Below the pieces are notes generated by a model. The model was not told the DNA's origin and did not search any database. It was given only the letters and a program-made list of their open reading frames with translations. Of a stretch of 49,707 nt of DNA, positions 14,555 to 47,840 are shown in pieces; position 1 is the stretch's first letter; every line of letters starts with the position of its first letter. The position numbers were made by a program, and so were the translations under genes. The stretch is from a virus (Duplodnaviria > Caudoviricetes): positions 1-49,707 of IMG/VR virus record IMGVR_UViG_3300027863_000054, one strand, 5' to 3'.

Positions 14555-14995
14555 TTATGGTTTAAACCCTGCTCTTTTTAAAGCATTTTTTAATTCATCC
14601 CTTAAATCAATAACAATCAAAAGCTCCTGCTTATGTTTCTTCCCATCTAAACCTTTATAAGTTCTCGTGAATAATATCTTATTATGAGCAATAGCATCAT
14701 CATCCCATATTCCAAACATCTTAAGCATATCTTCATCTCTAATCAGCTCTAAAAATCTTTTACGAGTTATCTCCTGATTCTTCACTCTATAAAAAGTATC
14801 TGAATAATAAAACTTCAACTTACCCCATAAACTTATTCTGTCCAGATAGAAGTCCATATTTATATCAAATGCCTGTGGTCTCGGGTCAGGATAAGCAAGC
14901 ATTTCGTGTGGTGTCATCTTAGGAGCTGGAATATCTAACCACTCTTTTATGCCTTTATCTGTCTCTTTTATAATCTCATCAATTAACCTTCTCAT
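14555..14995 (-). CDS. Hypothetical protein with leader-like N-terminus (MRRLIDEIIKE)
   Basis: ORF track; leader similarity; no adjacent SD (see hairpin finding). Confidence 0.65.
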   Translation of the reverse strand: MRRLIDEIIKETDKGIKEWLDIPAPKMTPHEMLAYPDPRPQAFDINMDFYLDRISLWGKLKFYYSDTFYRVKNQEITRKRFLELIRDEDMLKMFGIWDDDAIAHNKILFTRTYKGLDGKKHKQELLIVIDLRDELKNALKRAGFKP

Positions 14996-15003
14996 AAAAA
15001 ATA

Positions 15004-15045
15004 GGGCAAGGAGACCGCCTGATTTATCTGGCGGAGAAATTGCCC
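15004..15045 (-). promoter_or_regulatory. Compound hairpin (GGGCAA/TTGCCC outer, CCGCC/GGCGG inner) followed by a T-tract: terminator or SD-bridging structure
   Basis: Inverted repeats between AGGAGG (15048-15053) and ATG (14995). Confidence 0.6.
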
Positions 15046-15070
15046 ATCCTCCTTTCTTAAAAAATTTCTC

Positions 15071-15099
15071 TTGACATTTTCAAATAAATGAATTATAAT
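15071..15099 (+). promoter_or_regulatory. Perfect sigma70-type promoter TTGACA-N17-TATAAT, antisense to the structural genes
   Basis: ttgaca 15071-15076, 17-nt spacer, tataat 15094-15099. Confidence 0.65.
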
Positions 15100-15752
15100 T
15101 AAACTATTTTAAACTCTACTACTTCTTCAAATAATAACTCTGACGGAATTATATCATTCCATACTCTGACTATTATCTTCTTTATAGTTTTTAATGAAAA
15201 CTGGTCAAATACCCAACCTTCTAACTTTATGCTTTGTTTTACTACAAAATATAAACCTTTATCAAACATCCTTTCAACTGGTGATTCATCTACAACATCG
15301 GATAAAGACATATAAAACTCTATTGGATATAGTTCATTTACCAGTATCTCAAGTCTTGGATTCTGATGTTGCCAAAGCATTATTCTTTCTACTAACTTTA
15401 AAATCTTGTCATAGTCTTTAGACCAATACCAAACATTGTAGTTTAAATCCACTGGAACTGCTTTAAACTCTGTTATGTCTAACTTTGTGTCATCTAAATA
15501 GTTCCCATATAAACCTCTTCTTGCTGTAGGTGTTCTTTGCCTACCCCAAGCAAATTTAAAACTATCAATCCAAACATTTATAAACTCTAATACATTTTCT
15601 CCTCTTTTCTCTGCTATTACCCTTTGTGCAACATCTTTTGGAAATACAACTGTATCTAACTCTATAGTCTCCAAATTTAATATATCTCTTGCTTTATAAA
15701 AAGCTGTTGCCTGAATTCCTCTTGTAATTACTTTTAAAAAACTACTTTCCAT
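15099..15752 (-). CDS. Tail completion / sheath stabiliser (T4 gp15-like)
   Basis: AVPVDLNYNVWYWSK..D.I..L.E and IKLEGWVF...IKKIIV; upstream of sheath. Confidence 0.65.
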   Translation of the reverse strand: MESSFLKVITRGIQATAFYKARDILNLETIELDTVVFPKDVAQRVIAEKRGENVLEFINVWIDSFKFAWGRQRTPTARRGLYGNYLDDTKLDITEFKAVPVDLNYNVWYWSKDYDKILKLVERIMLWQHQNPRLEILVNELYPIEFYMSLSDVVDESPVERMFDKGLYFVVKQSIKLEGWVFDQFSLKTIKKIIVRVWNDIIPSELLFEEVVEFKIV

Positions 15753-15939
15753 TTTCTATCATCAACCCCAGAAACTCTTTCCAAATTTCTTTAACAAATT
15801 CCTCACTTGGCTTACTCAAAGTCATCTCGACCCAATCTTCAAAATATTTTTCTAATTCTTGACCCCTATGAAATCTCTGATAATCATTAAAGCACTTCTG
15901 AGCTACTAATAAAACTGCTCCTCTATAATCATCAGTCAT
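15742..15939 (-). CDS. Hypothetical protein
   Basis: Overlaps both neighbours in the operon. Confidence 0.55.
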   Translation of the reverse strand: MTDDYRGAVLLVAQKCFNDYQRFHRGQELEKYFEDWVEMTLSKPSEEFVKEIWKEFLGLMIENGK

Positions 15940-16153
15940 TTAACTTTCTCCTCTTTTTCTGACCCGGAGCAGGAAATTCACCTATTTCTGATAAATCTAT
16001 CTCTGAACGAATATACTTCTCAATGTCATAATAGTTTTCTACTTCTACATTTTCTAATATCTGTCCCGGTGATACATATACAGTTGTATTCCCTATTGTA
16101 ATAGGAACTGATACTCCCGATACATTTACTAACTTTTTAACTTTTATTCCCAT
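15932..16153 (-). CDS. Hypothetical small virion-associated protein
   Basis: AAGGAG SD, operon position. Confidence 0.6.
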   Translation of the reverse strand: MGIKVKKLVNVSGVSVPITIGNTTVYVSPGQILENVEVENYYDIEKYIRSEIDLSEIGEFPAPGQKKRRKLND

Positions 16154-17640: not shown

Positions 17641-18549
17641 TTACCTTACCCCCAAAATCTTTTTCATTATCTCCAACTCTCTATCTGTAATCTCCTCATC
17701 TTTGATTATCTCCTCTAAATCAGAAATCGTCTTCATATACGAATATCTACTCAAAAGCTTAAACAAAGCATTCTTATCTACCCAAGTCTTCATCATCTCT
17801 ATATCAGACAAAGCCTGCTCAGGAGTTTTTGGCATAGAAGCAAACCTACGAGCCATAATCCAATCTTTTTTTGTCTTAAGTAATTCCTCAATACTTGCCT
17901 CAATCTCCTCAAGTTTCTTCTGAAGCTCTTCTTTCGCTTTTTGTCTTAACTCTGGAGACATATTTTTTAGCATACTCTTAATCGTATCATAGTCTATAAC
18001 CTGTCTTTTTAATCTTCCTAATAACACATCCGCAGGTCCAACTACTTTTTCTATATCACTGATTATATTTCTATATACTTCATAAGGGTCAAAGTCAGAA
18101 GAAACTAACTGCGGTTCTTTTAACCATTTCCCATTTTTTAACTCATAAACACCGGGTGATAAGAAATCCTGAGCAGGATTTAGTTGCAAATACACTTCAA
18201 TAGGATGGTCTTGAACATATCCTTCTATTGCTTCCCGATTGTCTTTAAACCACTTAAAGATATCTTTCTGCCAATCTTCAGAAGTCTTCTCTTTTGGCAA
18301 TTTATCCTCTTCAAATATCAAATGCACATCTAAATCTGATGTATCTATATACTGATTACTTGTCAAAGAACCTACTATTCTTATCTCATCTGCACCTGTT
18401 AGGTCAAAATGTGGATACTCTTTTAAAGTTGCCAAAATCTTCTCTTTCACATCGTCTTTAAGCAAATACTGATTATCCTTCTTTGTCCAAATGTCTTTAG
18501 ACAAGTCTTTCTGCGGATAATCAATTATGCTTTCTAAAAGTCTTTTCAT
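17641..18549 (-). CDS. Pol-beta superfamily nucleotidyltransferase with MKRLLE leader
   Basis: GS-x8-SDLDVH (GSLTSNQYIDTSDLDVHL) plus a third acidic residue in PIEVY. Confidence 0.85.
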   Translation of the reverse strand: MKRLLESIIDYPQKDLSKDIWTKKDNQYLLKDDVKEKILATLKEYPHFDLTGADEIRIVGSLTSNQYIDTSDLDVHLIFEEDKLPKEKTSEDWQKDIFKWFKDNREAIEGYVQDHPIEVYLQLNPAQDFLSPGVYELKNGKWLKEPQLVSSDFDPYEVYRNIISDIEKVVGPADVLLGRLKRQVIDYDTIKSMLKNMSPELRQKAKEELQKKLEEIEASIEELLKTKKDWIMARRFASMPKTPEQALSDIEMMKTWVDKNALFKLLSRYSYMKTISDLEEIIKDEEITDRELEIMKKILGVR

Positions 18550-19206
18550 TTATGCTACTCCCAGCATACTGCTAATCTTTGATATAGAACTTGAAACTCT
18601 CTGATACAAAGGAGCAAAAATGCTTTTAAACCATTCCACAATTTTTCTCCAGAAACCTTCTTCGTTTATACTTTCACCCATTGCTTTAATTACCAAAGAA
18701 GGCTCTTTAACTGCTGTTAATTTCGAATATGTTTCTCTTAACAGCTTATCTACATCTGGTTTTAATTTTGACTCCACCTCTTCATAAACTTGCCAAAAAC
18801 TTGGTATTGTCTTTGTTTCTTTAAGATAAATCAAGGCTTTCTCTAATTGAATTCCGTCTGCTTTAAGTTTCTCTAAAACCTCAATAACCGGTGCTTCCAG
18901 TTCCTTCTTCTGTGCTTTTAACTCTTCTAACTTGGATTTAAGTTCATTCATCTTCTGCTGAATCTCTACTAAGTCGTCAACAATCTCTTTTTTCTTTTTG
19001 TCTAAAACCGTAGGAGACAAATATATTTTATGAACCTCATACAATCCTTTTTCTTCCATTTCTCGTATCCTCTGTTTTATCTGTTCTCTTGTAGTTTCAT
19101 CTAATTCAATCTTTTCTAATTTTGCTATTTGTCTTTTTACTCTCTCATAAAGAGTTTTTAATTTATACACATTTTCTGCTAAAAGTTGAACTTTTAACTC
19201 ATCCAT
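18550..19206 (-). CDS. Coiled-coil protein, putative head core/internal protein (start corrected to MDELKV)
   Basis: GAGGGGG SD before ATG at 19206; LYE, SINEE sites; amphipathic C-terminal helix. Confidence 0.6.
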   Translation of the reverse strand: MDELKVQLLAENVYKLKTLYERVKRQIAKLEKIELDETTREQIKQRIREMEEKGLYEVHKIYLSPTVLDKKKKEIVDDLVEIQQKMNELKSKLEELKAQKKELEAPVIEVLEKLKADGIQLEKALIYLKETKTIPSFWQVYEEVESKLKPDVDKLLRETYSKLTAVKEPSLVIKAMGESINEEGFWRKIVEWFKSIFAPLYQRVSSSISKISSMLGVA

Positions 19207-19218
19207 CTTTTCCCCCTC

Positions 19219-19236
19219 TTTGACACACGTGTCAAA
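19219..19236. promoter_or_regulatory. Palindromic operator-like site TTTGACAC-AC-GTGTCAAA
   Basis: Intergenic, abuts SD; second copy at 38322-38343. Confidence 0.6.
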
Positions 19237-19240
19237 ATTC

Positions 19241-20287
19241 CTATAAAGAAACGACCTCTGCATTTAATTTATTTTCCTGAATATATTTTGTTGCTTCGTC
19301 TTTTGAAACAAATGCCTTTAGCTCTCCGCTCTCCTTAATCAACTCAAGCTTATCTAAATCGGCAACAAAATACCTCTCTGACTTAGACTCGGTTGTTTTT
19401 GTCTTCACCCTACTAAGAGCATCCATTCTCGCTTCCTGCCTATTATCATACAAAACCCAGTTCTCAGTTTGTACGGCATGCACAGGTGTACCTCTATAAT
19501 AATTGCCTAAGTCAGTTAAATTGTCTATCTTAATAACTACATCGTCTGCGGTTTCACCCTCCACTGGGTCTACAACTAACCACAATTTTGCTGACTTACT
19601 ATCTGCAAGTTTAGATTCTCTAACAGTCTTAGACTCTACCGGCTTAACAGGCAGTTTCATTCTTTTCTTTACAACTCCCATAATATACTGGTAGTCTCTG
19701 CCTGATAAATCTTTATCGGATTTGCCCATCCACTCTTTATATTTTTCTTTAGTCTCCTTCCAATATCTCTCTGCCTTAGATTTAGATATTCCTGCTTCTT
19801 TAGCTAAACTGTATAAGGCAGCAGGCGGATGAGTTTCTCCTGCCTTTGCCAACTCTTCCTGCTCTTCCTTTGCAATTGCTTCTCCTTCCTCAGGAGTAAC
19901 TAATCCAGCAATTGCTTCCTCTGGAAGAACCAAAATTATCTCCTCTCCTGCTACAGGTTCTTCAGGTTTCTCTGCTGGTTTTTCCTCTTCTTTTGGTTCC
20001 TCTTTCTCTATTCCTTTTGCTTCAGGTTCTTTTGGTTCCTCTTTCTCTATTCCTTTTGCTTCAGGTTCTTTTGGTTCCTCTTTCTCTTGTTCCACTAACT
20101 TCTTAATCTTTTCCTCTTCCGTATCATCTGGATTAGGAATTCTTCCTTCTCTTGTCCATCTTTTAAGTCCTTTTTCCCGTAGTTTCTTAATTTTCTCTTC
20201 CTCAGTATCGTCTGGATTAGGAACCCGACCCTCCAATTCTACCTCCTCAGAAATAAACCTAAAAAGTTTGTTGACTATATCCATCAT
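19241..20287 (-). CDS. Acidic multi-module putative head core protein with internal repeats
   Basis: Two GRxPNPDDTEEEKIKKL units, EEPKEPEAKGIEK repeats, many (I/L/V)-X-E sites. Confidence 0.65.
   Translation of the reverse strand: MMDIVNKLFRFISEEVELEGRVPNPDDTEEEKIKKLREKGLKRWTREGRIPNPDDTEEEKIKKLVEQEKEEPKEPEAKGIEKEEPKEPEAKGIEKEEPKEEEKPAEKPEEPVAGEEIILVLPEEAIAGLVTPEEGEAIAKEEQEELAKAGETHPPAALYSLAKEAGISKSKAERYWKETKEKYKEWMGKSDKDLSGRDYQYIMGVVKKRMKLPVKPVESKTVRESKLADSKSAKLWLVVDPVEGETADDVVIKIDNLTDLGNYYRGTPVHAVQTENWVLYDNRQEARMDALSRVKTKTTESKSERYFVADLDKLELIKESGELKAFVSKDEATKYIQENKLNAEVVSL
19988..20087. repeat. About 2.5 copies of a 39-bp in-frame tandem repeat (EEPKEPEAKGIEK)
   Basis: ttttggttcctctttctctattccttttgcttcaggttc repeated. 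Confidence 0.85.
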
Positions 20288-20688
20288 TTACCTCCTTTTA
20301 AATCTACTTTATCCCCTTTTTCATTACACCAGCCCCTATCTTTGACATTTAGTCCAAAGTCAATTAGACTAATAACTTTATCGGAAACAACTGAATCGTT
20401 TTTCCAAAATGCCACCTTAAAAGAACTGTCTTCTTTATATAATGGTCTTAATTCTAAAGGTAAATCTTCAAATCTTAAATTGAGCAAGTCCTGAATTGAC
20501 TTATAAACACTTCCACTTAAAATATAATCCAGAATCTCTAAAGCTCTTTCATCTTTAGGAATAACTTTTAATCCATTTTCCAAAACCTGTCTAAATAAAG
20601 TAATTGTTGTAGTTGCAGGCAGCTTATCAGAATACTCTCCTAAATTATGCAATAATTTCTTATAAACCGTTAAATCTAAATCTTTCAT
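20284..20688 (-). CDS. Hypothetical protein
   Basis: ATGA-coupled on both sides. Confidence 0.65.
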   Translation of the reverse strand: MKDLDLTVYKKLLHNLGEYSDKLPATTTITLFRQVLENGLKVIPKDERALEILDYILSGSVYKSIQDLLNLRFEDLPLELRPLYKEDSSFKVAFWKNDSVVSDKVISLIDFGLNVKDRGWCNEKGDKVDLKGGK

Positions 20689-21521
20689 AACACATCCTTA
20701 ATTATATCTTTTATCCTTTGAAAATCTTTTATAATAAACCTTTCTCTCTCTGGATACAACTTCCCACCTTCAATCTTTACTCCGGCTATGCCTTCTTCCT
20801 CAAGCTTCTCTGCCACCTCCTTGTCATCAATGTAGATATTTTCTAAAATCTTCCACGAATAAGTTATTACTCCCTCAAAAAGAACTCTAACTCCTTTATA
20901 ATTAGCTATAAAAACTACACCTGCTAAATTATCTCTATCTAATTCTACTGTTATCGGTCTTCCATTTTCCAAAGAATCAATCAACATCTCTATTGCCCCT
21001 CTGTCATCAGCATATTTATTCTTTACTTTTGCCATTAAACCTTCGATGCTTTCTGAAATTCTTCCTAAATCTATTACAGCATTTACTGGTTGATATACTC
21101 CTCCTTCAAAAACAAACTTAAAGCTTTCTACATCTTTCTTTAAGTCTTTAATCTTTGAGTTCTCTAATACATCTTCTAAAACCTCTTCAAGTTCATCGTA
21201 AAGCGAGCCTATTCCTCTATCTATTGCTTCTTTCAAATACTGAAACAAGTCCACAACCATAACCGGTGATACATATTTATCTGAGTTAAGAAATCTCTTA
21301 CAGAATTCCCCAAAAAATCCCCTTTCTACTAATGTGACTAACTCTCCATTGCCAAACTTTACCAAATACCCTTCAGGTCTTTCTAAAATCTTAATCTGCC
21401 ACTTATTTTTAAGTCTTGCTAAGGTCTCTAACTTTTTCTGAAAAGTAGTAAATCCTGAAGGCAAAAATACTATGTTAGCAGAAGTAGTTGCCTCGATAAT
21501 GTCATTAATAAATCTATCCAT
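20685..21521 (-). CDS. Hypothetical protein (start corrected to MDRFINDIIEA)
   Basis: GAGGAG SD before ATG at 21521; leader-like IIE-A. Confidence 0.65.
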   Translation of the reverse strand: MDRFINDIIEATTSANIVFLPSGFTTFQKKLETLARLKNKWQIKILERPEGYLVKFGNGELVTLVERGFFGEFCKRFLNSDKYVSPVMVVDLFQYLKEAIDRGIGSLYDELEEVLEDVLENSKIKDLKKDVESFKFVFEGGVYQPVNAVIDLGRISESIEGLMAKVKNKYADDRGAIEMLIDSLENGRPITVELDRDNLAGVVFIANYKGVRVLFEGVITYSWKILENIYIDDKEVAEKLEEEGIAGVKIEGGKLYPERERFIIKDFQRIKDIIKDVL

Positions 21522-21645
21522 TTTTATCTCCTCTTTGCCTCCTCTGAAGCCCATCTAAAATAGGTCCATAAGCTTTTCTAAACCCTTCTACCTCTCTGTC
21601 TACCTGTTCAGCTTCTTTTAAAATTGCCTCTAACAACTTTTTCAT
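21514..21645 (-). CDS. 43-aa leader-bearing mini-ORF or truncated gene (MKKLLEAILKEAEQVD...)
   Basis: Read by eye; AAGGAG SD; same leader as the duplicated upstream gene. Confidence 0.6.
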   Translation of the reverse strand: MKKLLEAILKEAEQVDREVEGFRKAYGPILDGLQRRQRGDKNG

Positions 21646-21659
21646 TTTTTACTCTCCTT

Positions 21660-22016: not shown

Positions 22017-22045
22017 TCTGCCTCCTTTTCACCAAATAATACCTA

Positions 22046-22402: not shown

Positions 22403-22414
22403 TTTGCCTCCTTT

Positions 22415-23208: not shown

Positions 23209-23580
23209 TTATAAATATCCTAAAGCTTTTCTGATTCTTTTTGATGTTCCTTCATCCCATCCTTTTCCTTCTAACCTTGAATAAATCCAAGCAGTAGCAA
23301 AAGCAGGCACATCAATTTCGTCATGTAAATCGGGATTGTTAGATACTACACTTAAACCTCCCCCTACCTCTACAAAAGCATTTACCGCTTCTACGACATT
23401 GTTCCATTCTTTTTTAGCATTTTCATTGTATCTTTGAATGGCTACTTTTAGGTCTTCCATTCTTTTTTTCACTTCATCTGCTTTTCTCCGCTCTGACTCG
23501 TCTCTTGCCTTTTTTAATTCCTCTTCTGTCGGTGGTTTAAATATATCCTGCTCTAATAAACTCTCTAATAATTTTTTCAT
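23209..23580 (-). CDS. Protein with the LRR-family 22-aa N-terminus (MKKLLESLLEQDIFKPPTEEEL) fused to an unrelated helical domain
   Basis: 5' DNA identical to that of LRR genes; no repeats. Confidence 0.75.
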   Translation of the reverse strand: MKKLLESLLEQDIFKPPTEEELKKARDESERRKADEVKKRMEDLKVAIQRYNENAKKEWNNVVEAVNAFVEVGGGLSVVSNNPDLHDEIDVPAFATAWIYSRLEGKGWDEGTSKRIRKALGYL

Positions 23581-24371
23581 ACTATTATCTCACCTTTTAC
23601 TTCTGATACTTTGCTTACATCCTCTCTAGTAAATTTAACTAGATTATCATAACAATAAAAACCTCTTCCTACATATTCTGGTGCTCCCTCTAAAGAGGTT
23701 AACTTGTTATGAGAACAACCAAAATTTCCTCCTACATATTTAGGTGCTCCTTCTAATGAAGTTAAATTGTTGTCATGACAAACAAAATTTCCTCCTACTC
23801 TTTCAGGTGCTCCCTCTAAAGAGGTTAAATCGTTAAAAGCACAATCAAAATTTCCTTCTACTCTTTCTGGCGCACCTTTTAAAGAGGTTAAATTGTTCTT
23901 AAAACAATAAAAATTTCCTCCTACATATTTAGGTGCTCCTTTTAAAGAAGTTAAATTGTTATGAGAACAATTAAAATACTCACCTACATATTTAGGTGCT
24001 CCTTCTAAAGATTTTAACTTGTTACCACGACAATCAAAATTTCCTTCTACTCTTTCTGGCGCACCTTTTAAAGAGGTTAAATTGTTATAAGAACAATAAA
24101 AACTACCACCTACATATTTAGGTGCTCCCTCTAATGTAGTTAATCCACACTCATAACAATAAAAATTTCCTTTTACTTTACCAAACTTGATTATAAATTT
24201 ACCGTTTTTAACAACACTACTTAAATTATACAAACTACAATCAAAATCATAAGTTCCATCTGGATTCAGTTTACCGCTATATCCTTCTATAAATCTTTTT
24301 AACAATTCTTCCTCTGTAGGCGGTTTAAATATATCTTCCTGTTCTAAAAGTTTTGAAAGTAGTTCTTTCAT
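23577..24371 (-). CDS. Variable LRR protein (8 x 21-aa repeats), outlying paralogue
   Basis: PKYVGGxFxCxxNxLTSLEGA repeats; N- and C-caps shared with eight paralogues. Confidence 0.88.
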   Translation of the reverse strand: MKELLSKLLEQEDIFKPPTEEELLKRFIEGYSGKLNPDGTYDFDCSLYNLSSVVKNGKFIIKFGKVKGNFYCYECGLTTLEGAPKYVGGSFYCSYNNLTSLKGAPERVEGNFDCRGNKLKSLEGAPKYVGEYFNCSHNNLTSLKGAPKYVGGNFYCFKNNLTSLKGAPERVEGNFDCAFNDLTSLEGAPERVGGNFVCHDNNLTSLEGAPKYVGGNFGCSHNKLTSLEGAPEYVGRGFYCYDNLVKFTREDVSKVSEVKGEIIV

Positions 24372-36622: not shown

Positions 36623-36868
36623 TTACTTCTCCGTTAACTTCTTTACTGTATCATACGCCAATACAGAACCACCAGCGATACCAAGTATCTTTAAGATTAT
36701 ATCCATTATAGATTTTACATCCAAGTCAATACCTACTATCTTTGCTCCTGCTACAACTACAATGGCTAATATTATAGCAACAATAGGAGCAATCTTTGTA
36801 GGCAACTTAATTTTCTTTAGCAACTGAATTACAAATGGAATTACTATGGCACTAATTATCTCAAACAT
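36623..36868 (-). CDS. Holin-like membrane protein
   Basis: 81 aa, 2-3 hydrophobic helices, IQLLKK and AYDTVKK motifs, charged C-terminus. Confidence 0.65.
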   Translation of the reverse strand: MFEIISAIVIPFVIQLLKKIKLPTKIAPIVAIILAIVVVAGAKIVGIDLDVKSIMDIILKILGIAGGSVLAYDTVKKLTEK

Positions 36869-36980
36869 TTTCTCCTCCTTTTTTACTTTCCGTGTTTTTC
36901 CAGAAACCCTGATAAAGGAATTCTTTTTCTACATCTTCTCTCGTTGACTCTACCAAAATCTCTTCAAGCAATCTTTTCAT
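36861..36980 (-). CDS. 39-aa leader-bearing mini-ORF (MKRLLEEILVESTRED...)
   Basis: Read by eye; strong SD; overlaps the holin start. Confidence 0.55.
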   Translation of the reverse strand: MKRLLEEILVESTREDVEKEFLYQGFWKNTESKKGGENV

Positions 36981-38596: not shown

Positions 38597-39028
38597 CTAA
38601 TCCCACCAAATCCTCAGTTCATCGCCTACAAAATCAACTTCATCTGCACTAAGTTCTTTTTGAAGTTTTTCTAAGTTGATGTCTTTACTTACTCCATCTA
38701 CATATACTACAACAGAACCTTCCCTGCCTAATCTATACTCTTTGTTCCTTCCTAACAAATCTACAAGTTTCTTTGCCACATTAGGATTAAACAAATTGTA
38801 TCCACCAACAATCTCTGCCTGTTTTAAAAAGGTCTCTGCATCTGTATATACCCCTTCCCAGTCTAATGTTCTTAAATGTTGTCCTATTTCCCAGTCCAAA
38901 ATACAATCTGCATAGGCTTTCGCGGTTGTATAAAAAGGCTCCTCCGGATATTTGCTCTTAATATATGCTAAGTATTTCTCTTTCTCTTTACTAACCTCAT
39001 TTAATGCTTCTATTAACTTCTTAATCAT
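38597..39028 (-). CDS. Hypothetical protein with MIKKLIEALNE leader
   Basis: ORF track; REGSVVVYV and ADEVD...LRIWWD motifs. Confidence 0.7.
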   Translation of the reverse strand: MIKKLIEALNEVSKEKEKYLAYIKSKYPEEPFYTTAKAYADCILDWEIGQHLRTLDWEGVYTDAETFLKQAEIVGGYNLFNPNVAKKLVDLLGRNKEYRLGREGSVVVYVDGVSKDINLEKLQKELSADEVDFVGDELRIWWD

Positions 39029-39040: not shown

Positions 39041-39553
39041 TTATCTTTTAAGCAGGTTCTCGATAATGTTTATCCTTACATCACTTAAAATCTTTTTTCT
39101 AAGTTCTGAATCTATTTCTATTTCCTCCTCCTCTAACTTCTCTCTTCTTTCTAAAACTTCTTTTAACAAGTCAAACGAGCCTTTAGTTTCTCTCTGCTCT
39201 GGCGACTTAACTACAGATGCTTCTTTCGGTATCTCCCTCTGAGCAATCATTTCTATCTGTTTTAAGATTATCTCTTTATTTTTCCCTGTAGGATTTACTG
39301 CCCTGTCATCTATAAGTATCTCCCAGTCTTTTTTGTATGCTTCATCAATAGAGATATACCCATCTGGAACTATACCTCTTTCTTTAAGCCAAGCATCTAT
39401 TTCTTCGTTTTCTCTACCGGAGAAGATAAATACTTGATGACCTTTTGCTTTTAAGTCTTTAACCAATTCTAAAATGTCTCCGATAGGTTCACCGATAGAA
39501 CCATCAGGATTCTTTACTGCTATTGTGTCGTCAAAGTCTATGGCTATTTTCAT
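39041..39553 (-). CDS. HAD-superfamily phosphatase with acidic tail
   Basis: IAIDFDDTI (motif I), FSGR (motif II), LIDDRA (motif IV). Confidence 0.85.
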   Translation of the reverse strand: MKIAIDFDDTIAVKNPDGSIGEPIGDILELVKDLKAKGHQVFIFSGRENEEIDAWLKERGIVPDGYISIDEAYKKDWEILIDDRAVNPTGKNKEIILKQIEMIAQREIPKEASVVKSPEQRETKGSFDLLKEVLERREKLEEEEIEIDSELRKKILSDVRINIIENLLKR

Positions 39554-40215
39554 ACAAATTTCCGACCTTTTACTTCTGATACTTTGCTTACATCCTCTCT
39601 AGTAAATTTAACTGGATTATCATAACAATAAAAATTTCCTCCTACATATTTAGGTGCTCCCTTTAAAGAAGTTAACTGGTTATTAGAACAATCAAAATAT
39701 CCTCCTACATATTTAGGTGCTCCCTTTAAAGAGGTCAACTTGTTGTTATAACAATAAAAATCTCCTTCTACTCTTTCAGGTGCTCCTTTTAAAGAAGTTA
39801 ATTTATTACTAGAACAACTAAAATTTCTTCCTACATATTTAGGTGCTCCCTCTAAAGAGGTTAACTCGTTAACAGAACAATCAAAATATCCTTCCACATA
39901 TTTAGGTGCTCCTTTTAAAGATTTTAATTTGTTATCACGACAATCAAAATCACCGCCTACATATTTAGGTGCTCCCTCTAATGAGGTTAACTCGTTAATA
40001 GAACAATCAAAATAACCTTTTACTTTACCAAACTTGATTAGAAATTTACCATCTTTAACAACACCACTTACATCTTTAATACCCACATCAAAATCATAAC
40101 TACCATCTGGATTCTGTCTGCCTTTATATCTTTCTATAAATCTCTTTATAAGTTCTTCCTCTGTCGGTGGTTTAAATATATCCTGCTCTAATAAACTCTC
40201 TAATAATTTTTTCAT
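39550..40215 (-). CDS. Variable LRR protein (6 repeats)
   Basis: Leader, N-cap, 21-aa repeats, C-cap. Confidence 0.88.
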   Translation of the reverse strand: MKKLLESLLEQDIFKPPTEEELIKRFIERYKGRQNPDGSYDFDVGIKDVSGVVKDGKFLIKFGKVKGYFDCSINELTSLEGAPKYVGGDFDCRDNKLKSLKGAPKYVEGYFDCSVNELTSLEGAPKYVGRNFSCSSNKLTSLKGAPERVEGDFYCYNNKLTSLKGAPKYVGGYFDCSNNQLTSLKGAPKYVGGNFYCYDNPVKFTREDVSKVSEVKGRKFV

Positions 40216-41015
40216 ACTATTATCTCACCTTTTACTTCTGATACTTTCTTGACATCTTCTTCGGTAAATTTAACTGGATTATCATAACAATAAAAATCTT
40301 TTCCTACATATTTAGGTGCTCCCTCTAAAGAAGTTAACTTATTATAAGAGCAATCAAAATCTCCTTTTACTCTTTCAGGTGCTCCCTCTAAAGAAGTTAA
40401 ATTGTCACCGCGACAATCAAAATCTCCACCTACATATTTAGGTGCTCCCTCTAAAGAAGTTAACTGGTTATAAGAACAATTAAAATGTCCACCTACTCTT
40501 TCTGGCGCTCCTTTTAGAGAGGTTAAGTTGTTAGCAGAACAAGAAAAACGCCCACCTACATATTTCGGTGCTCCCTCTAAAGAAGTTAATTTGTTATCAG
40601 AACAATAAAAATCCTTACCTACATACTTCGGTGCTCCCTCTAAAGATGTTAACTTGTTATGAGAACAATCAAAATATCCTTCTACATATTTAGGTGCTCC
40701 TTTTAAAGAAGTTAACTGGTTATAAGAACAATCAAAACCTCCTTCTACTCTTTCAGGTGCTCCCTCTAAAGAGATTAACCCACTATCAGAACAATAAAAA
40801 CCTCCTTTTACTTTACCAAATTTAATTGCAAATTTACCATTTTTAACAACACTACTTACATCATACAAATCACAATCAAAGTCATAACTACCATCTGGAT
40901 TTAGTTTACCGTTATATTCTTTTACAAACTTAACTATTTTTGCCTGTTCTAATTCCTCTTCTGTCGGTGGTTTAAATATATCCTGCTCTAATAAACTCTC
41001 TAATAATTTTTTCAT
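40212..41015 (-). CDS. Variable LRR protein (8 repeats)
   Basis: Same architecture; ATGA-coupled. Confidence 0.88.
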   Translation of the reverse strand: MKKLLESLLEQDIFKPPTEEELEQAKIVKFVKEYNGKLNPDGSYDFDCDLYDVSSVVKNGKFAIKFGKVKGGFYCSDSGLISLEGAPERVEGGFDCSYNQLTSLKGAPKYVEGYFDCSHNKLTSLEGAPKYVGKDFYCSDNKLTSLEGAPKYVGGRFSCSANNLTSLKGAPERVGGHFNCSYNQLTSLEGAPKYVGGDFDCRGDNLTSLEGAPERVKGDFDCSYNKLTSLEGAPKYVGKDFYCYDNPVKFTEEDVKKVSEVKGEIIV

Positions 41016-41839
41016 ACTATTATCCTACCTTTTACTTCTGATACTTTCCTAACTTCTTCTTCTGTAAATTTAACTGGATTATCACGGCATTCAAAATCTC
41101 CACCTACATACTTCGGTACTCCCTTTAAAGAGGTTAATTTGTTATCAGAACAATAAAAACCTCCTTCTACTCTTTCAGGTGCACCTTTTAATGAAGTTAA
41201 CTGGTTATCAGAACAATTAAAATATCCCCCTACATATTTAGGTGCTCCTTCTAAAGAAGTTAAATTGTTACCAGAGCAATTAAAATATCCTCCTACATAT
41301 TTAGGTGCTCCTTTTAAAGAGGTTAAATTGTTATAAGAACAATTAAACTCTCTTTTTACTCTTTCTGGAGCACCTTCTAAAGAAGTTAAATTGTTATCAG
41401 AACAACCAAAATATCCTCCTACATATTTCGGTGCTCCTTCTAAAGAAGTTAATTTGTTATAAGAACAATAAAAATCTCCTCCTACTCTTTTTGGAGCACC
41501 TTCTAAAGATGTTAACTTGTTATGAGAACAATCAAAATATCCTTCTACATATTTAGGTGCTCCCTCTAAAGAGGTTAATTTGTTATAAGAACAATAAAAA
41601 TCTCCTTTTACTTTACCAAACTTGATTATAAATTTACCATCTCTAATAATACCACTTACATCTTTAATATCCACATCAAAATCATAACTACCATCTGAAT
41701 TTAGTTTACCATTATATTTCTTGACAAATTCCTCAATTTTTCTCTGTTCAAATTCTTCTCTTCTCTGTTCTAATTCTTCCTCTGTTGGTGGTTTAAATAT
41801 GCTATCCTGCTCTAACAAACTTTCTAATAATTTTTTCAT
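41012..41839 (-). CDS. Variable LRR protein (8 repeats)
   Basis: Same architecture; ATGA-coupled. Confidence 0.88.
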   Translation of the reverse strand: MKKLLESLLEQDSIFKPPTEEELEQRREEFEQRKIEEFVKKYNGKLNSDGSYDFDVDIKDVSGIIRDGKFIIKFGKVKGDFYCSYNKLTSLEGAPKYVEGYFDCSHNKLTSLEGAPKRVGGDFYCSYNKLTSLEGAPKYVGGYFGCSDNNLTSLEGAPERVKREFNCSYNNLTSLKGAPKYVGGYFNCSGNNLTSLEGAPKYVGGYFNCSDNQLTSLKGAPERVEGGFYCSDNKLTSLKGVPKYVGGDFECRDNPVKFTEEEVRKVSEVKGRIIV

Positions 41840-42405
41840 ACTTCTATTACACCTTTTACTTCTGATACTTTCCTTACATCTTCTTCGGTAAATTTAACTG
41901 GATTATCATAACATTCAAAATTTCCTCCTACATATTTAGGTGCTCCCTCTAAAGAAGTTAATTTGTTATGAGAACAATAAAAACCTACTACTTTTTCTGG
42001 TGCACCTTTTAAAGATGTTAACTTGTTAAAAGAACAATAAAAACTACCACCTACATATTTAGGTGCTCCTTCTAAAGTGGTTAAATTGTTATGAGAACAA
42101 CTAAAACTTCCTCCTACATATTTAGGTGCTCCTTTTAAAGTAGTCAATTCACACTTATAACAATCAAAATAACCTTTTACTTTACCAAATTTAATTATAA
42201 ATTTACCATCTACAATAATATCTCCTAAACCAATCCTATCAATATTTCTATCAAAGTCATAACTACCATCTGGATTTTGTTTACCGTTATATTCTTTTAC
42301 AAATTTCTCAATTCTAAACTCTTTTCTTGCCTGCTCTAACTCTTCCTCTGTAGGTGGTTTAAATATATCCTGCTCTAATAACAAATTCTCTAATAATTTT
42401 TTCAT
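41836..42405 (-). CDS. Variable LRR protein (4 repeats)
   Basis: Same architecture; one repeat is one residue short (PEKVVGFYC). Confidence 0.88.
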   Translation of the reverse strand: MKKLLENLLLEQDIFKPPTEEELEQARKEFRIEKFVKEYNGKQNPDGSYDFDRNIDRIGLGDIIVDGKFIIKFGKVKGYFDCYKCELTTLKGAPKYVGGSFSCSHNNLTTLEGAPKYVGGSFYCSFNKLTSLKGAPEKVVGFYCSHNKLTSLEGAPKYVGGNFECYDNPVKFTEEDVRKVSEVKGVIEV

Positions 42406-44318
42406 AGCTTTATACCCAATTCAGCTAAAATCTCGACAGCTTTATTTCCGTCTATCTGCGTGTCTTTAGCATCCCAATACATCTTTTTTCCTGACTTGTC
42501 AACTAAAATTGCAATCTTGTCATAGTTATCTCTTTTAGGCTGTTTTCGTATCACAAAATATATAGCATATTTCATAAAATAGTCATAAAAATGATGGCTG
42601 TCGCTCTCTCCAGAAATACACCACTTTGTTCCCTTCCCATACAAGCAAGATGCTTCCCAAGTAGTAATCCTATAAACAAAAGCTTTGTCGTTCTCAAATA
42701 CTTTCTCTGCTCCTTTTATCTTTGCTTCCTTTTCTAACTCCGACTTCGTCAGAGCATCAAATTCCTCTACTTTCTGACCAACCTCTTTCAAAGACTTATA
42801 TGACTGTATATTCCTTGCATCCACTGGCATTACACCCTTATTAACTAACTTATCAAACTTTGGAATTACTCTCTCAAATTCACTAATCTCAGGCTTCTCT
42901 TGAGAATAAATCTTGCACATCCATTCAATATACTTCTTCTGAGAAGTAGGGTCTATTTCAAGAAGCTTGCTAAATATATCCTCTGGAACTTTACCTGTTT
43001 CTACATATTTCTTCCTTGCTGACACCTCTCCCTCCTCTATCACCTCTTCTTTAACAACTTCTCTCTCTTTTTTATATGCTTGCCACTCATCTTCTGCTTC
43101 CCTTGTCAACTGTTTAATCAGAGTATCATCTCCTGCTAATACATTCCTTATCTCTTCCGAACTTCGGGTAAGCAACTTCCTCCAAATCAACGGAATCATA
43201 TTTTGCTTGTCTGCAGGAATCATTCCTACAATCTTTCTATATACACCAGGCCCTGCTAACATATCTCTTGTCTCATCCTCAATCTCTTCTTTTCCCATAA
43301 TCGCCTGAAACTCTTTTGCCAAAGACAGCCACTCATATATACCTTTTACTATCTCGTGGATAAGATACGGAAATATAATTGCTTTTGCTTCTATAGTATA
43401 CGCATCTCCTTCAGGCTTAACTTTTTCCACACCAGCTCGTGCTCCTCCTTTTAAACCGATTTTCTCTATTCCAAAAGGCGTGACCCAATAGCCAAGTTCT
43501 GCTAAAACAGCAACTATACCATACTTGTTTATTAATGTTGGGTCTATCTTGTCAAGCTCATCTTTAACTACATTAAAAAGATAAAACTTATTTACCGCAC
43601 CACCTGTAATCAATAAATTCGCAAATCGCCTCTTGATACTCAACTCTTCCCTAAAAGCAGACGCAAGCAACTTGTTAAATTCCTCTTCAGGAGTTAAATT
43701 TTCTGACCTCTTTTCTAATCTAAAATCTGCAAGAGTTGGAGTATCTAACCTTGCTTCTATTCTTAACTCCTCTCCTTCTACCGCATCTTTGACCATTTCA
43801 AACTCTGGTAGATTCAAAACAACCTCAACAGCAAGTCCTTCTAACCTCTTTTTGTATGAGTGCTCTATCTCAAGAATATCATTCAAGGCTTGCATAGCAA
43901 TAGAAACAAATCCCGGCAGTTTTAACTCAGACGCTCTCTTTCCTGTATATTGTTCAAGTCTTGACAACATACGGTTATACTCATCACTCGTCACCAACTC
44001 TAAATATGACTTTTCTTCACTGGATAACTTCGGAAACAACTTGTTTATAATCTCATCACCTTTTTTTATCCACTTCTGTTTGTCTTCTGAAGTCCAATTT
44101 GGAAAACGAGTCTTTTCTCCTAATCCTTCTGCCCTCTGCAAAAAGAACAATGCTACATCACTCTCTGCTTTTGGCTTCGGAGATATACCCGGTTCAGGAG
44201 CAATAGGACTCTTTGGTTTTGGCTTTATATCTGGCTCTGTTTTCACATCTGGTTCTACTTCTGTGTCTGTCTTCACTTCTTTAAGCTTTTCAATTAAAAA
44301 TTCTAATAACTTTTTCAT
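42402..44318 (-). CDS. Two-domain protein with MKKLLEFLIE leader; C-terminal ASCLYGKGTKWCIS domain
   Basis: Pro-rich linker, LIHEIVKGIYE motif, VKEEVIEE junction, then DPT..KKYIEW and GTKWC motifs. Confidence 0.7.
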   Translation of the reverse strand: MKKLLEFLIEKLKEVKTDTEVEPDVKTEPDIKPKPKSPIAPEPGISPKPKAESDVALFFLQRAEGLGEKTRFPNWTSEDKQKWIKKGDEIINKLFPKLSSEEKSYLELVTSDEYNRMLSRLEQYTGKRASELKLPGFVSIAMQALNDILEIEHSYKKRLEGLAVEVVLNLPEFEMVKDAVEGEELRIEARLDTPTLADFRLEKRSENLTPEEEFNKLLASAFREELSIKRRFANLLITGGAVNKFYLFNVVKDELDKIDPTLINKYGIVAVLAELGYWVTPFGIEKIGLKGGARAGVEKVKPEGDAYTIEAKAIIFPYLIHEIVKGIYEWLSLAKEFQAIMGKEEIEDETRDMLAGPGVYRKIVGMIPADKQNMIPLIWRKLLTRSSEEIRNVLAGDDTLIKQLTREAEDEWQAYKKEREVVKEEVIEEGEVSARKKYVETGKVPEDIFSKLLEIDPTSQKKYIEWMCKIYSQEKPEISEFERVIPKFDKLVNKGVMPVDARNIQSYKSLKEVGQKVEEFDALTKSELEKEAKIKGAEKVFENDKAFVYRITTWEASCLYGKGTKWCISGESDSHHFYDYFMKYAIYFVIRKQPKRDNYDKIAILVDKSGKKMYWDAKDTQIDGNKAVEILAELGIKL

Positions 44319-44350: not shown

Positions 44351-44902
44351 TCATACTTCTATTACACCTTTTACTTCTGATACTCTTCTAACTTCTTCTT
44401 CGATAAATTTAACTGGATTATCATAACAAACAAAATTTCCTCCTACATATTTAGGTGCTCCTTTTAAAGAAGTTAATTTATTACTAGAACAACTAAAATT
44501 TCTTCCTACATATTTAGGTGCTCCCTCTAAAGAGGTTAACTCGTTAACAGAACAATCAAAATATCCTTCCACATATTTAGGTGCTCCTTTTAAAGATTTT
44601 AATTTGTTATCACGACAATCAAAATCACCGCCTACATATTTAGGTGCTCCCTCTAATGAGGTTAACTCGTTAATAGAACAATCAAAATATCCTTTTACTT
44701 TACCAAACTTGATTAGAAATTTACCATCTTTAACAACACTACTTAAATTATACAAACTACAATCAAAATCATAAGTTCCATCTGGATTCAGTTTACCATC
44801 ATGCATCTTTACAAACACATCTATCTTTCTCTGTTCTAATTCTTCCTCTGTAGGTGGTTTAAATATATCCTGCTCTAATAGACCCTCTAATAATTTTTTC
44901 AT
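44351..44902 (-). CDS. Variable LRR protein (4 repeats)
   Basis: Repeats nearly identical to those of 39550-40215. Confidence 0.88.
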   Translation of the reverse strand: MKKLLEGLLEQDIFKPPTEEELEQRKIDVFVKMHDGKLNPDGTYDFDCSLYNLSSVVKDGKFLIKFGKVKGYFDCSINELTSLEGAPKYVGGDFDCRDNKLKSLKGAPKYVEGYFDCSVNELTSLEGAPKYVGRNFSCSSNKLTSLKGAPKYVGGNFVCYDNPVKFIEEEVRRVSEVKGVIEV

Positions 44903-44925: not shown

Positions 44926-45186
44926 TCATACTACTTCCTCTCCATCAACAGTTATTCTACCATCTACATACAGAATCACTACCTTCTCCCCAGATGTATA
45001 CTTCCAATACGGAGCACTAACTTCAGCTGAACGCTCAAGTTCTCCACCTTCAAGTGGTTCATCAATTAAGCCTTTTTCTTTCAAATACTTCTCTAACACA
45101 TTTTTCAACATCTCTCCTACTTCTATTTTCTCCTCTACCTGTCTTTCTTTTACTTCCTCCTGAATCCCTTCAAGCAATTTTTTCAT
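44926..45186 (-). CDS. Small leader-bearing protein (start corrected to MKKLLEGIQEE), paralogue of 46125-46400
   Basis: AAGGAGG SD before ATG at 45186; shared KYLKEKGLI..PL and LY..GRI.VDG.EV. Confidence 0.75.
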   Translation of the reverse strand: MKKLLEGIQEEVKERQVEEKIEVGEMLKNVLEKYLKEKGLIDEPLEGGELERSAEVSAPYWKYTSGEKVVILYVDGRITVDGEEVV

Positions 45187-45377: not shown

Positions 45378-45419
45378 TCATACCTCCTCTTTACATAAAT
45401 TCTCTAATAGTTTTTTCAT
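45378..45419 (-). pseudogene. Leader-only remnant MKKLLENLCKEEV*
   Basis: ATGA-coupled to the upstream LRR gene exactly as full cargo genes are. Confidence 0.6.
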
Positions 45420-46102
45420 ACTTTTATCCTACCTTTTACTTCCGACACTTTTCTAACTTCTTCTTCGGTAAATTTAACTGGATTACCATAACAATCAAAA
45501 TATCCTCCTACATATTCAGGTGCTCCCTCTAAAGAGGTTAATTTATTATAAGAACAATTAAAATGTCCACCTACATATTTAGGTGCTCCTTCTAAAGAGG
45601 TTAAATTGTTATCAAAACAATAAAAACCTCCTTCTACTCTTTCTGGTGCTCCCTTTAAAGAAGTTAACTGGTTATAAGAACAATCAAAATATCCTCCTAC
45701 ATATTTAGGTGCTCCCTTTAAAGAAGTTAACTGGTTATTAGAACAATTAAAATATCCTCCTACATATTTAGGTGCTCCCTTTAAAGAAGTTAACTGGTTA
45801 TTAGAACAATTAAAATATCCTCCTACATATTTAGGTGCTCCCTCTAATGAGATTAATCCGCTATCAGAACAATCAAATTTACCACCTACTTTACCAAATT
45901 TAATTGCAAATTTACCATTTTTAATAACAAATTTTAAATCATCTCTATATAAAATGCAATCAAAGTCATAAGTTCCATCTGGATTCAGTTTACCATTATA
46001 TTTCTTTATAAACACCTCTATTTTTCTCTGCTCTAATTCTTCTTCTGTTGGTGGTTTAAATATGCTATCCTGCTCTAATAAACTTTCTAATAATCTTTTC
46101 AT
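45416..46102 (-). CDS. Variable LRR protein (6 repeats, two adjacent ones identical)
   Basis: APKYVGGYFNCSNNQLTSLKG occurs twice in tandem. Confidence 0.88.
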   Translation of the reverse strand: MKRLLESLLEQDSIFKPPTEEELEQRKIEVFIKKYNGKLNPDGTYDFDCILYRDDLKFVIKNGKFAIKFGKVGGKFDCSDSGLISLEGAPKYVGGYFNCSNNQLTSLKGAPKYVGGYFNCSNNQLTSLKGAPKYVGGYFDCSYNQLTSLKGAPERVEGGFYCFDNNLTSLEGAPKYVGGHFNCSYNKLTSLEGAPEYVGGYFDCYGNPVKFTEEEVRKVSEVKGRIKV

Positions 46103-46124
46103 TTCTTCTTACTTCATTTAATCA

Positions 46125-46400
46125 CTATTTTACTTCTTTGCCATCTACAAATATTCTACCATTTCGATAGAGCCAAACCTCTCTACCCTTTTTATCTTTA
46201 TAACCAATAGACTTAACAAAAAACCCGTCTACTTTAAGCGGAGGCTCTATCAAACCTTTTTCCTTTAGATATTTCCCCAATATATCCTGTAAAAGGTCCT
46301 CCGCATCCATCTCTTCTATCTCTTCATCATCCATCTCGTCCTCTTCACTTTCATCTACTCTTCGGATTCTTCGGATTATTGTTTCTAACAGCTTCTTCAT
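46125..46400 (-). CDS. Small acidic leader-bearing protein
   Basis: MKKLLETII...VDES; paralogue of 44926-45186. Confidence 0.75.
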   Translation of the reverse strand: MKKLLETIIRRIRRVDESEEDEMDDEEIEEMDAEDLLQDILGKYLKEKGLIEPPLKVDGFFVKSIGYKDKKGREVWLYRNGRIFVDGKEVK

Positions 46401-46428
46401 ATTTCCTCCTTACTTATCCATAAAACTC

Positions 46429-46509
46429 TTATCTTATTTCCCTGCCATCTACGGTTATTCTACCATCTTGATACAAAATTATTTCTCTACTTTCTAATAG
46501 TTCTCTCAT
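46429..46509 (-). pseudogene. Internally deleted paralogue MRELLESREIILYQDGRITVDGREIR*
   Basis: AAGGAGG SD; leader joined directly to the family C-terminal hairpin. Confidence 0.6.
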
Positions 46510-46524
46510 TATTTTTTCCCTCCT

Positions 46525-47202
46525 TTAGATACCAGTGCTTATTATCCTACCTTTTACTTCTGATACTTTTCTGACTTCTTCTTCGGTAAATTTCTTTGGA
46601 TTTCTTCTACAATAAAAATCTCCTCCTACATACTTCGGTGCTCCCTCTAAAGATGTTAACTTGTTATCAGAACAATAAAAACCTCCTTTTACTCTTTCTG
46701 GTGCTCCCTCTAAAGAAGTTAATTTGTTATCAGAACAATAAAAATCCTTACCTACATATTTAGGTGCTCCCTCTAAAGATGTTAACTTGTTACGAGAACA
46801 ATAAAAATCTCCTCCTACATATTTAGGTGCTCCTTTTAAAGAAGTTAAATTGTTATCAAAACAATAAAAATTTCCTTCTATCCTTTCTGGTACTCCTTCT
46901 AAAGAAGTTAAATTGTTAAAAGAACAATCAAAATCTCCTTCTACATACTTCGGTGCTCCCTCTAAAGATGTTAACCCAGTTTCAGAACAATCAAAATAAC
47001 CTTTTACTTTACCAAATTTAATTAGAAATTTACCATCTCTAATAATACCACTTACATCTTTAATATTCACATCAAAATCATAAGTTCCATCTGGATTCAG
47101 TTTACCGTTATATCTTTCTATAAATCTTTTTAACAATTCTTCCTCTGTAGGTGGCTTAAATATATCTTCCTGCTCTAATAGACTTTCTAATAATTTTTTC
47201 AT
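46525..47202 (-). CDS. Variable LRR protein (6 repeats)
   Basis: Same architecture as paralogues. Confidence 0.88.
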   Translation of the reverse strand: MKKLLESLLEQEDIFKPPTEEELLKRFIERYNGKLNPDGTYDFDVNIKDVSGIIRDGKFLIKFGKVKGYFDCSETGLTSLEGAPKYVEGDFDCSFNNLTSLEGVPERIEGNFYCFDNNLTSLKGAPKYVGGDFYCSRNKLTSLEGAPKYVGKDFYCSDNKLTSLEGAPERVKGGFYCSDNKLTSLEGAPKYVGGDFYCRRNPKKFTEEEVRKVSEVKGRIISTGI

Positions 47203-47840
47203 ACTTCTATTACACCTTTTACTTCTGATACTTTCCTTACATCTTCTTCGGTAAATTTAACTGGATTGTCAAAACAAACAAAATTTCCTCCTACATATTT
47301 AGGTGCTCCCTCTAAAGAAGTTAATTTGTTATGAGAACAATAAAAACCTACTACTACTTTTTCAGGTGCTCCTTCTAAAGAGGTTAAATTGTTATAAGAA
47401 CAATAAAAACTACCACCTACATATTTAGGTGCTCCCTCTAAAGAAGTTAATTTGTTATCAGAACAATTAAAATATCCACCTACTTTTTCTGGAGCACCTT
47501 TTAGAGAAGTTAAATTGTTAAAAGCACAATCAAAATCTCTACCTACATATTTAGGTGCTCCTTTTAAAGTAGTCAATTCATACTTATAACAATCAAAATA
47601 ACCTTTTACTTTACCAAATTTAATTATAAATTTACCATCTACAATAATATCTCCTAAACCAATCCTATCAATATTTCTATCAAAGTCATAACTACCATCT
47701 GGATTTTGTTTACCGTTATATTTTTTCACAAACCTCTCAATTCTATCCTTTTCGAACTCTTTTCTTGCCTGTTCTAATTCTTCCTCTGTAGGTGGTTTAA
47801 ATATATCCTGCTCTAACAAACTTTCTAATAGCTTCTTCAT
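47199..47840 (-). CDS. Variable LRR protein (5 repeats)
   Basis: First gene after portal; caps nearly identical to 41836-42405. Confidence 0.88.
   Translation of the reverse strand: MKKLLESLLEQDIFKPPTEEELEQARKEFEKDRIERFVKKYNGKQNPDGSYDFDRNIDRIGLGDIIVDGKFIIKFGKVKGYFDCYKYELTTLKGAPKYVGRDFDCAFNNLTSLKGAPEKVGGYFNCSDNKLTSLEGAPKYVGGSFYCSYNNLTSLEGAPEKVVVGFYCSHNKLTSLEGAPKYVGGNFVCFDNPVKFTEEDVRKVSEVKGVIEV

Follow-up and report, generated by a model that had tools for sequence, protein, structure and literature searches.

Why do so many genes of dissimilar content in the head region of a T4-like phage begin with the same few residues? The question is raised by IMG/VR record IMGVR_UViG_3300027863_000054, whose 49,707 nucleotides were analysed in full (hereafter the window), a 49.7-kb piece of a T4-like myophage genome whose genes all lie on the minus strand. 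Between its portal and tail sheath genes, many reading frames open with the leader MKKLLE or a variant of it, which a first-pass annotation had read as a capsid-targeting sequence (CTS) like that of T4 internal protein IPIII. Comparison with relatives makes it likely that the shared peptide is a T4-type head-addressing propeptide trimmed by the phage's own S77 protease; from the sequences we infer that the carriers are packaged and cut, and the chance that the accessory ones are also injected appears evenly balanced. The curated gene set comprised 68 minus-strand genes, 50 between portal and sheath and 18 (tail and baseplate) outside, and an independent simple gene caller recovered 68/68 stops and 62 exact starts. 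Comparisons were made with the full length of 14 related virus records of 45-215 kb, of which G003 and G006 are complete and the rest partial, and with an additional set of 24 metagenome loci, the window's own among them.

The leader occurs at gene starts between portal and sheath

The strict motif M[KR][KRE]LL[ES] began 21 of the 68 curated genes, that is, 21/50 between portal and sheath and 0/18 outside, whereas 0.003-0.004 were expected by chance per 68 starts; away from starts, one internal match was found in 14,986 positions. When all six frames were scanned with a somewhat relaxed pattern, 24 matches appeared, every one a minus-strand start between portal and sheath. The strict carriers were the nine leucine-rich repeat (LRR) genes, the genes of the 638-aa protein (orf638), the ATP-grasp-like protein and the nucleotidyltransferase, both 118-aa genes, 23209, 35976, 46125, 44926 and three mini-ORFs (short open reading frames), and a 22nd copy of the motif opened a 13-aa frame at 45378-45419. 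These counts bear out the first-pass annotation, which had listed such N-termini and placed all of them between portal and sheath. The weaker variants it had named at 38597, 24383, 20685 and 14555 were also present, that of 20685 only from an internal ATG at 21521. Its list needed amendment at 44926, which is a carrier only from an internal ATG at 45186, and at the four mini-ORFs, three of which are strict while the fourth is the 13-aa frame, likely a remnant. Its count of about 20 unrelated families was too high: the nine LRR genes are paralogues (66-93% identical), the 118-aa pair is identical, and 46429, 46125 and 44926 have a C-terminal motif in common, so that about 10 distinct bodies remain after such genes are merged.

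The common unit was the hexapeptide MKKLLE followed by a hydrophobic residue 8, the ten-residue form being found mostly in LRR genes. Glutamate at residue 6 (E6) and hydrophobic residue 8 each occurred in 20/21 carriers, and to this extent the proposed ten-residue match to IPIII held; hydrophobic residue 8 together with E10 occurred in only 11/21 and, once the LRR genes and 23209 are set aside, in only 2 of the 11 remaining carriers. Amphipathicity over the first eleven residues was 0.60 in carriers versus 0.32 in other genes (p 6e-5). Synonymous codons agreed between carriers in 101/213 comparisons, near the 91.6 expected as background, which argues that among unrelated carriers selection acts on the peptide and not on a shared DNA cassette. 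Local DNA copying did happen at 23209, which has the same gene-junction DNA as LRR8, and at the 43-aa mini-ORF (mini43), which has the same start as the 118-aa pair. The genes concerned are as follows.

47853..49541, minus strand: portal of T4 gp20 type (PF07230, E 3.7e-28), upstream boundary, without leader
47199..47840, minus strand: LRR1, leader MKKLLESLLE and tag QDIFKPPTEEEL
46525..47202, minus strand: LRR2, leader and tag
46429..46509, minus strand: 26-aa mini-ORF, leader MRELLES, C-terminal motif common with 46125 and 44926
46125..46400, minus strand: 91-aa protein, leader MKKLLET
45416..46102, minus strand: LRR3, leader and tag
45378..45419, minus strand: 13-aa frame, likely a remnant, leader MKKLLEN
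44926..45186, minus strand: 86-aa protein, leader MKKLLEG, internal ATG with Shine-Dalgarno (SD) sequence
44351..44902, minus strand: LRR4, leader and tag
42402..44318, minus strand: orf638, leader-bearing protein of two modules; a cut predicted near residue 429 would release the module related to PA5oct virion protein gp205
39550..42405, minus strand: LRR5-LRR8, overlapping tandem genes, leader and tag on each
38597..39028, minus strand: 143-aa protein (orf143), weak leader MIKKLIE, polyprotein-internal module in relatives
36861..36980, minus strand: 39-aa mini-ORF, leader MKRLLEE
35976..36254, minus strand: 92-aa protein, leader MRKLLEY, leader-bearing homologue in L034
33177..35177, minus strand: 666-aa acidic protein built of modules, a candidate core polyprotein with hydrophobic-x-Glu sites in its interior
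31909..33180, minus strand: 423-aa ATP-grasp-like protein, leader MKKLLEQ (TIGR00877, E 5.4e-5; PDB 2yrw, E 0.17)
27249..31886, minus strand: 1545-aa protease-scaffold fusion, S77 prohead protease at about residues 1-225, beginning with LIE-10
25796..27247, minus strand: major capsid protein of gp23 type, E73 invariant in 13/13 and predicted propeptide end
24383..25027, minus strand: 214-aa SWIM-finger protein of the conserved core, with a weak leader and an N-terminal site that is also conserved
23577..24371, minus strand: LRR9, leader MKELLSKLLE and tag
23209..23580, minus strand: 123-aa non-LRR protein with LRR-type leader and tag
21660-22016 and 22046-22402, minus strand: two identical 118-aa genes, leader MKKLLEAILKE
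21514..21645, minus strand: mini43, same leader as the 118-aa pair
20685..21521, minus strand: 278-aa conserved gene, weak leader ending IIE
18550..20287, minus strand: two proteins of 348 and 218 aa, both with internal sites; a module of the former lies inside the L034 protease fusion
17641..18549, minus strand: 302-aa Pol-beta-type nucleotidyltransferase, leader MKRLLE, body from invariant E6-S7
14555..14995, minus strand: 146-aa protein (orf146), weak leader MRRLIDE
12936..14537, minus strand: tail sheath, downstream boundary, without leader

Carriers include variable and conserved genes

The LRR genes carry 4-8 repeats each of 21 residues (counted with our own pattern), variable in position, and meet at overlapping stop-start junctions; their closest named family was internalin J, far below its cut-off. 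The ATP-grasp and Pol-beta assignments are weak: a fold search with the nucleotidyltransferase model (predicted local distance difference test, pLDDT, 67) returned MNT and CdnE as best PDB rows at E of at least 0.07; the protein was assigned to no family and had no match in the annotated phage collection. The N-terminal module of orf638 (model pLDDT 53) had no atlas match and no useful PDB sequence match. At 21660-22402 a 386-bp tandem duplication with identical coding sequence was observed; the resulting 118-aa pair is either a recent amplification or an assembly artefact.

Among the 14 relatives, in whose partial records an absence carries less weight, the nucleotidyltransferase was found in 10, 20685 in 12 and 24383 in 14, and the distribution was patchy for LRR genes (4), orf638 (4), orf146 (4), orf143 (3) and the ATP-grasp-like gene (0, but present in L031 and L034). 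The 21514-24371 block, which holds five strict carriers, was missing from L031 and L033, both close relatives. One contig of run X4 skipped 38596-39030, exactly orf143, and LRR genes were joined in other orders in contigs of runs X3 and X4, both findings coming from single contigs at 85% likeness in which repeats may mislead. The earlier description of a swappable set fits the LRR genes, orf638, orf143 and the 21514-24371 block but not the nucleotidyltransferase, 24383 or 20685; on this distribution, some carriers are conserved core genes and not swappable cargo.

Relatives carry leaders of their own in the same region

In the relatives, the strict window motif began 5/521 genes inside the portal-sheath region and 0/1302 outside. 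The complete record G006 had its own 15-residue, MSLEKDITEIKKLVE-like leader on 25 genes inside and 0/256 outside; it mostly ended L-x-E, and its end aligned with MKKLLE. N-terminal likeness between non-homologous genes, scored without supervision, was enriched inside in 10/14 relatives (p<0.05), and leader types tracked the capsid tree. A matrix of the window leader matched 12/134 versus 9/467 genes at one cut-off, its weak transfer being explained by each lineage having its own leader. A general amphipathic-plus-site pattern matched 127/521 genes inside versus 65/1302 outside, with an optimistic p-value because the pattern was composed after the lists were viewed. The first-pass annotation had called for a comparison of the portal-sheath interval with the rest and had allowed that the motif might be equally common in non-structural genes; the former came out as enrichment in both the strict and the G006 counts, and the latter is contradicted by the 0/1302, a figure from relatives and not from this genome. 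A literature search that did not include the letters of the second tag described below and reached few subscription papers listed no paper on such leaders in this clade.

A family of any kind was assigned to 10/49 of the relatives' head-region proteins, including lytic transglycosylase (SLT), histidine phosphatase, WGR and, weakly, 2H; a GNAT domain was also seen in relatives. At G009 48217 (L105:8217), a single leader gene unites a weak 2H domain, SLT and the nucleotidyltransferase. TnsA-like endonuclease genes bear the head leader at G006 154654 (L086:14654; plus NUMOD3) and G010 26288 (L108:6288), and homing-type nucleases may hitch-hike into the capsid there. In Vibrio phage PP083314 (L125:7941-11024), an LRR homologue and four neighbours by the terminase start with a T4-like F-x-x-F/Y-x-x-E, which is suggestive of CTS-like starts, although a search for virion data on this phage found none; one LRR gene of the huge phage LR756501 has a leader-like start. 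The tail-distal region of G002 and G003 holds a long gene block with starts resembling, by eye, sugar-modifying enzymes.

Predicted cut sites mark leader ends and module joints

The S77 protease residues H78, S133 and D165/D169 were invariant in 9/9, and the window protease matched T4 gp21 at E 1.7e-7. In the 1545-aa fusion, variable modules are joined at hydrophobic-x-Glu sites ahead of a scaffold-like C-terminus; only S77 and DUF7249 scored above cut-off, and domain searches found no MuF domain. Among relatives the fusion ranged from 533 to 1545 aa, one module was shifted in position in L031, and another module of the L034 fusion is a separate gene in the window. A hydrophobic-x-Glu site within the first 30 residues, conserved in at least 70%, was present in 9/21 families inside the region and 0/27 outside (p 1.8e-4), and in 11/21 versus 5/27 at 50% conservation, two mixed families being excluded. 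Portal, neck and gp15 were without a conserved N-terminal site of this kind.

The same sites also mark module joints within polyproteins. Whether it follows a leader or lies deep in a fusion, the nucleotidyltransferase begins its body with an invariant E-S, and its cut is therefore predicted after E6. In eight other records the C-terminal orf638 module stands alone as a gene with its own leader, and the border site is kept. With cutting at leader and internal sites, a module would be deliverable either as a leader gene or as a fusion segment. The window gene at 20284-20688 begins at the predicted mature position, and the propeptide of its family ends hydrophobic-x-Glu. The idea that the leader is a copy of the scaffold tail was rejected: the leader of G006 and G010 occurs without an internal match, and no match was found at the window's scaffold tail.

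A second tag follows the leader in ten carriers

Residues resembling DIFKPPTEEEL directly follow the leader in all nine LRR genes and 23209, and the equivalent in G006 and G010 is (I/V)FK(A/P)AS.EQ. When the tag pattern alone was searched, a hydrophobic-x-Glu site preceded 30/30 N-terminal copies inside the region and 26/28 internal copies, against a 14% background. Six G006 genes outside the head region had the tag at their start with the leader absent and the site in 0/6, and two N-terminal copies in L050 were likewise without a preceding site. From the site adjacency and the tag-only genes, the tag marks the predicted mature N-terminus and is usable without the leader.

A leader-plus-tag profile matched 213 clusters (50% identity) among 1.84 billion. 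Among the 150 matches listed, 15 were G006 or G010 genes, and a Pfam family was absent in 84/93 scanned; the 138/163 count from these matches is partly circular, the site being built into the profile, and a 1889-aa ankyrin protein among them is probably a false match. The retained second tag is the most original part of the system. At G006 112243-112862 (L084:12243-12862), three small tag-only genes lie between the terminase-like and portal genes, and two of them contain pieces resembling, by eye, the start and end of the major capsid protein; they are possibly decoys or remnants.

A homologue of one carrier module is found in virions

PA5oct gp205 (EST35_0205), which opens with a leader-like peptide ending L-Y-E, is a homologue of the C-terminal orf638 module (pairwise E 3e-12, profile E 7e-24). 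This protein was itself detected in PA5oct virions with 20 peptides and 55% coverage (PMC7318152 Table S5). The T4-like capsid-targeting reading is in this way upheld in part: a cleavable head-addressing propeptide is well supported by the relatives and by one virion-detected homologue, and the IPIII register is not.

Comparison with T4 and proposed mechanism

With T4, the window has in common a T4-type portal, S77 protease and gp23, a short N-terminal peptide on unrelated proteins that ends hydrophobic-x-Glu, a protease start (LIE-10, against LIE-9 in T4 gp21), and cargo that varies between relatives, diverse CTS-bearing cargo being already described for T-even phages (PMC3012670). It differs in having 21 strict carriers versus four (IPI, IPII, IPIII and Alt, whose peptides gp21 removes), in their arrangement as a single block between portal and sheath, in mostly acidic cargo, in a protease fused to the scaffold with inserted modules, and in the second retained tag; the principle itself is known from T4. 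Dozens of head proteins (about 50 in SPN3US; PMC5694885), cleavage after Glu, paralogue families and identical N-termini on diverged paralogues also liken it to SPN3US and phiKZ (PMC5694885, PMC10052503), which differ in that most propeptides exceed 100 residues and are cut at A/S/G-x-E, that processing affects only 8-9 proteins, and that the head-gene context is unrelated. Polyvalent proteins (PMC5512222) offer a parallel as late proteins of several domains, nucleotidyltransferase, 2H and peptidoglycan hydrolase among them, that are believed to enter the virion and to be injected; in the window, by contrast, predicted head-protease sites bound the modules, and these shift between leader genes and the fusion of protease and scaffold. 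Most modules in the window and its relatives matched no named family.

In the mechanism we propose, the leader would form a short amphipathic helix that docks late proteins on the prohead core, where the carriers would co-assemble with the protease-scaffold fusion. The protease would then cut after E6 and/or E10-11 and at internal polyprotein sites. Freed accessory modules (LRR binders, enzymes) would stay in the head and probably exit with the DNA, and the conserved carriers are probably fixed core parts. The tag DIFKPPTEEEL would become the new N-terminus and probably dock on a partner after maturation. A more far-reaching form of this scheme is offered tentatively, as something we rather doubt: a two-part code in which the clip-off leader loads the head, the (I/V)FK(P/A)xS/TxE tag, exposed at the front of every released module, queues ejection or docks on a host partner, small leaderless non-packaged proteins use the tag, and the phage injects nine LRR binders together with enzymes as a repertoire that recombines.

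Several observations weigh against the leader being a T4-type head-addressing propeptide. In IPIII, residues 4 and 7 chiefly determine targeting and residues 8 and 10 processing (PMC9026906), and residue 7 is hydrophobic in only 2/21 carriers. IPII and IPIII, at -1.8, do not fit the window matrix, on which the carriers themselves score 4.1-22.1 (leave-one-out); Alt, at 5.3, was the best of 15 T4 proteins. The residue-by-residue likeness to the IPIII CTS that had been proposed is accordingly weak; a shifted register (M1/L4/L5 on Y4/F7/I8) retains the IPIII spacing. Alt itself counts in favour of the reading: it loses six residues by a cut at ITE-6 (PMC5694885), and the leader resembles this six-residue propeptide more than that of IPIII. 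The isoelectric point (pI) is below 7 in 18/21 carriers versus 8.9-9.5 in the T4 internal proteins (Alt 6.0). The 134-aa product of the window 20284 gene is without the propeptide carried by 91% of its family, so a leader is not always needed. The internal-site pattern also gives the tape measure a high score (z 3.1, with 4.9 for the protease fusion). In the relatives, 4/14 showed no significant N-terminal likeness enrichment, the window matrix transferred poorly (4/134 vs 5/467 at a higher cut-off, p 0.12), and its counts were not enriched in G002 or G003. PA5oct gp205 is distant (24% identity) and represents one family only, and virion mass spectrometry gives its association with the virion, not a location inside the head. 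Judged from these comparisons, the system would work like that of T4 but fails the IPIII register and the basic-cargo feature.

The carriers might instead be packaged and trimmed as core, scaffold or filler, like T4 gp67, gp68 and gp22, and be degraded or retained and not injected as effectors. This account gains from the conservation of several carriers in 10-14 of 14 relatives, from an acidity like that of gp22 and gp67, from the fusion of modules into the protease-scaffold protein itself and from T4 gp67 and gp24, which also pass the general leader pattern; the variable-repeat LRR solenoids, the two enzymes (ATP-grasp and nucleotidyltransferase) and the relatives' SLT, histidine-phosphatase and GNAT proteins are nevertheless folded, have few internal sites and vary between lineages, which fits a function after maturation, and we hold it to be unlikely. 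Still less probable is a non-capsid role in which the leader serves as a cut site or docking helix, for example for protease-timed activation or degradation of late cytoplasmic proteins. The L-x-E site is indeed the most conserved part and the residues upstream differ by lineage, but T4 gp21 works inside the assembled prohead, where its substrates must be (PMC9958956), and one homologous module, PA5oct gp205, is virion-associated.

That the motif is a by-product of translation-initiation bias or gene-start recombination, with no protein function, we regard as largely excluded and the least probable of these accounts. Carrier starts are A-rich (0.55 vs 0.39), the junction DNA of 23209 and LRR8 and the starts of mini43 and the 118-aa pair are in common, and the mini-ORFs resemble remnants; yet the strict match is absent from the relatives' outside genes, synonymous codons are randomised, and the same site is kept inside fusions, where initiation does not occur. 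The head-addressing propeptide remains our preferred explanation of the leader.

Further features of the window

Besides the boundary and head genes, the window encodes neck, gp15, tubes and baseplate, and its matched head module families were PF03420, PF07068 and PF07230. The capsid protein was at most ~34% identical to those of annotated phages, and a search of genome contigs found no capsid relative. Of the window's sampled words, 85-86% were found in two hot-spring runs, which may be where it comes from; no RNA dataset was listed as containing it. The T4 portal is uncleaved (PMC9026906, Table 1).

A look for the T4 late promoter found TATAAATA at three places on the coding strand, and no 7-mer upstream of genes was convincingly enriched (best p 1e-3, uncorrected). 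An operator-like 16-bp palindrome, TTGACACNNGTGTCAA, occurs twice (0.14 copies expected): at 19220-19235, a short way upstream of the 218-aa gene, and at 38325-38340, in the same position relative to the methyltransferase gene. Upstream of orf146, 14996-15098 contains an SD with a short frame, a hairpin, a T-run and then an ATG without SD, and the Rfam search, this segment included, gave no match. Within the head region, 36251-38595 holds a ParB-like/N6-N4 methyltransferase flanked by holin-like, coiled-coil and lipobox-type lipoprotein genes, the strict leader being present in none; a spanin-like pair there would suggest a two-membrane host.

Implications

A heat-adapted loading signal of six residues could also serve as a tool for filling capsids with chosen proteins. 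The second tag points to a post-cleavage step without counterpart in the T4 literature consulted. Protein localisation to the T4 core has been termed mysterious (PMC9958956), and the lineage-specific leaders that track the capsid tree would amount to natural swap experiments on this question. If the head-addressing reading is true, the LRR binders, the nucleotidyltransferase and the ATP-grasp enzyme become candidate injected counter-defence proteins, and genome sequence alone would list the head cargo of an uncultured T4-like clade.

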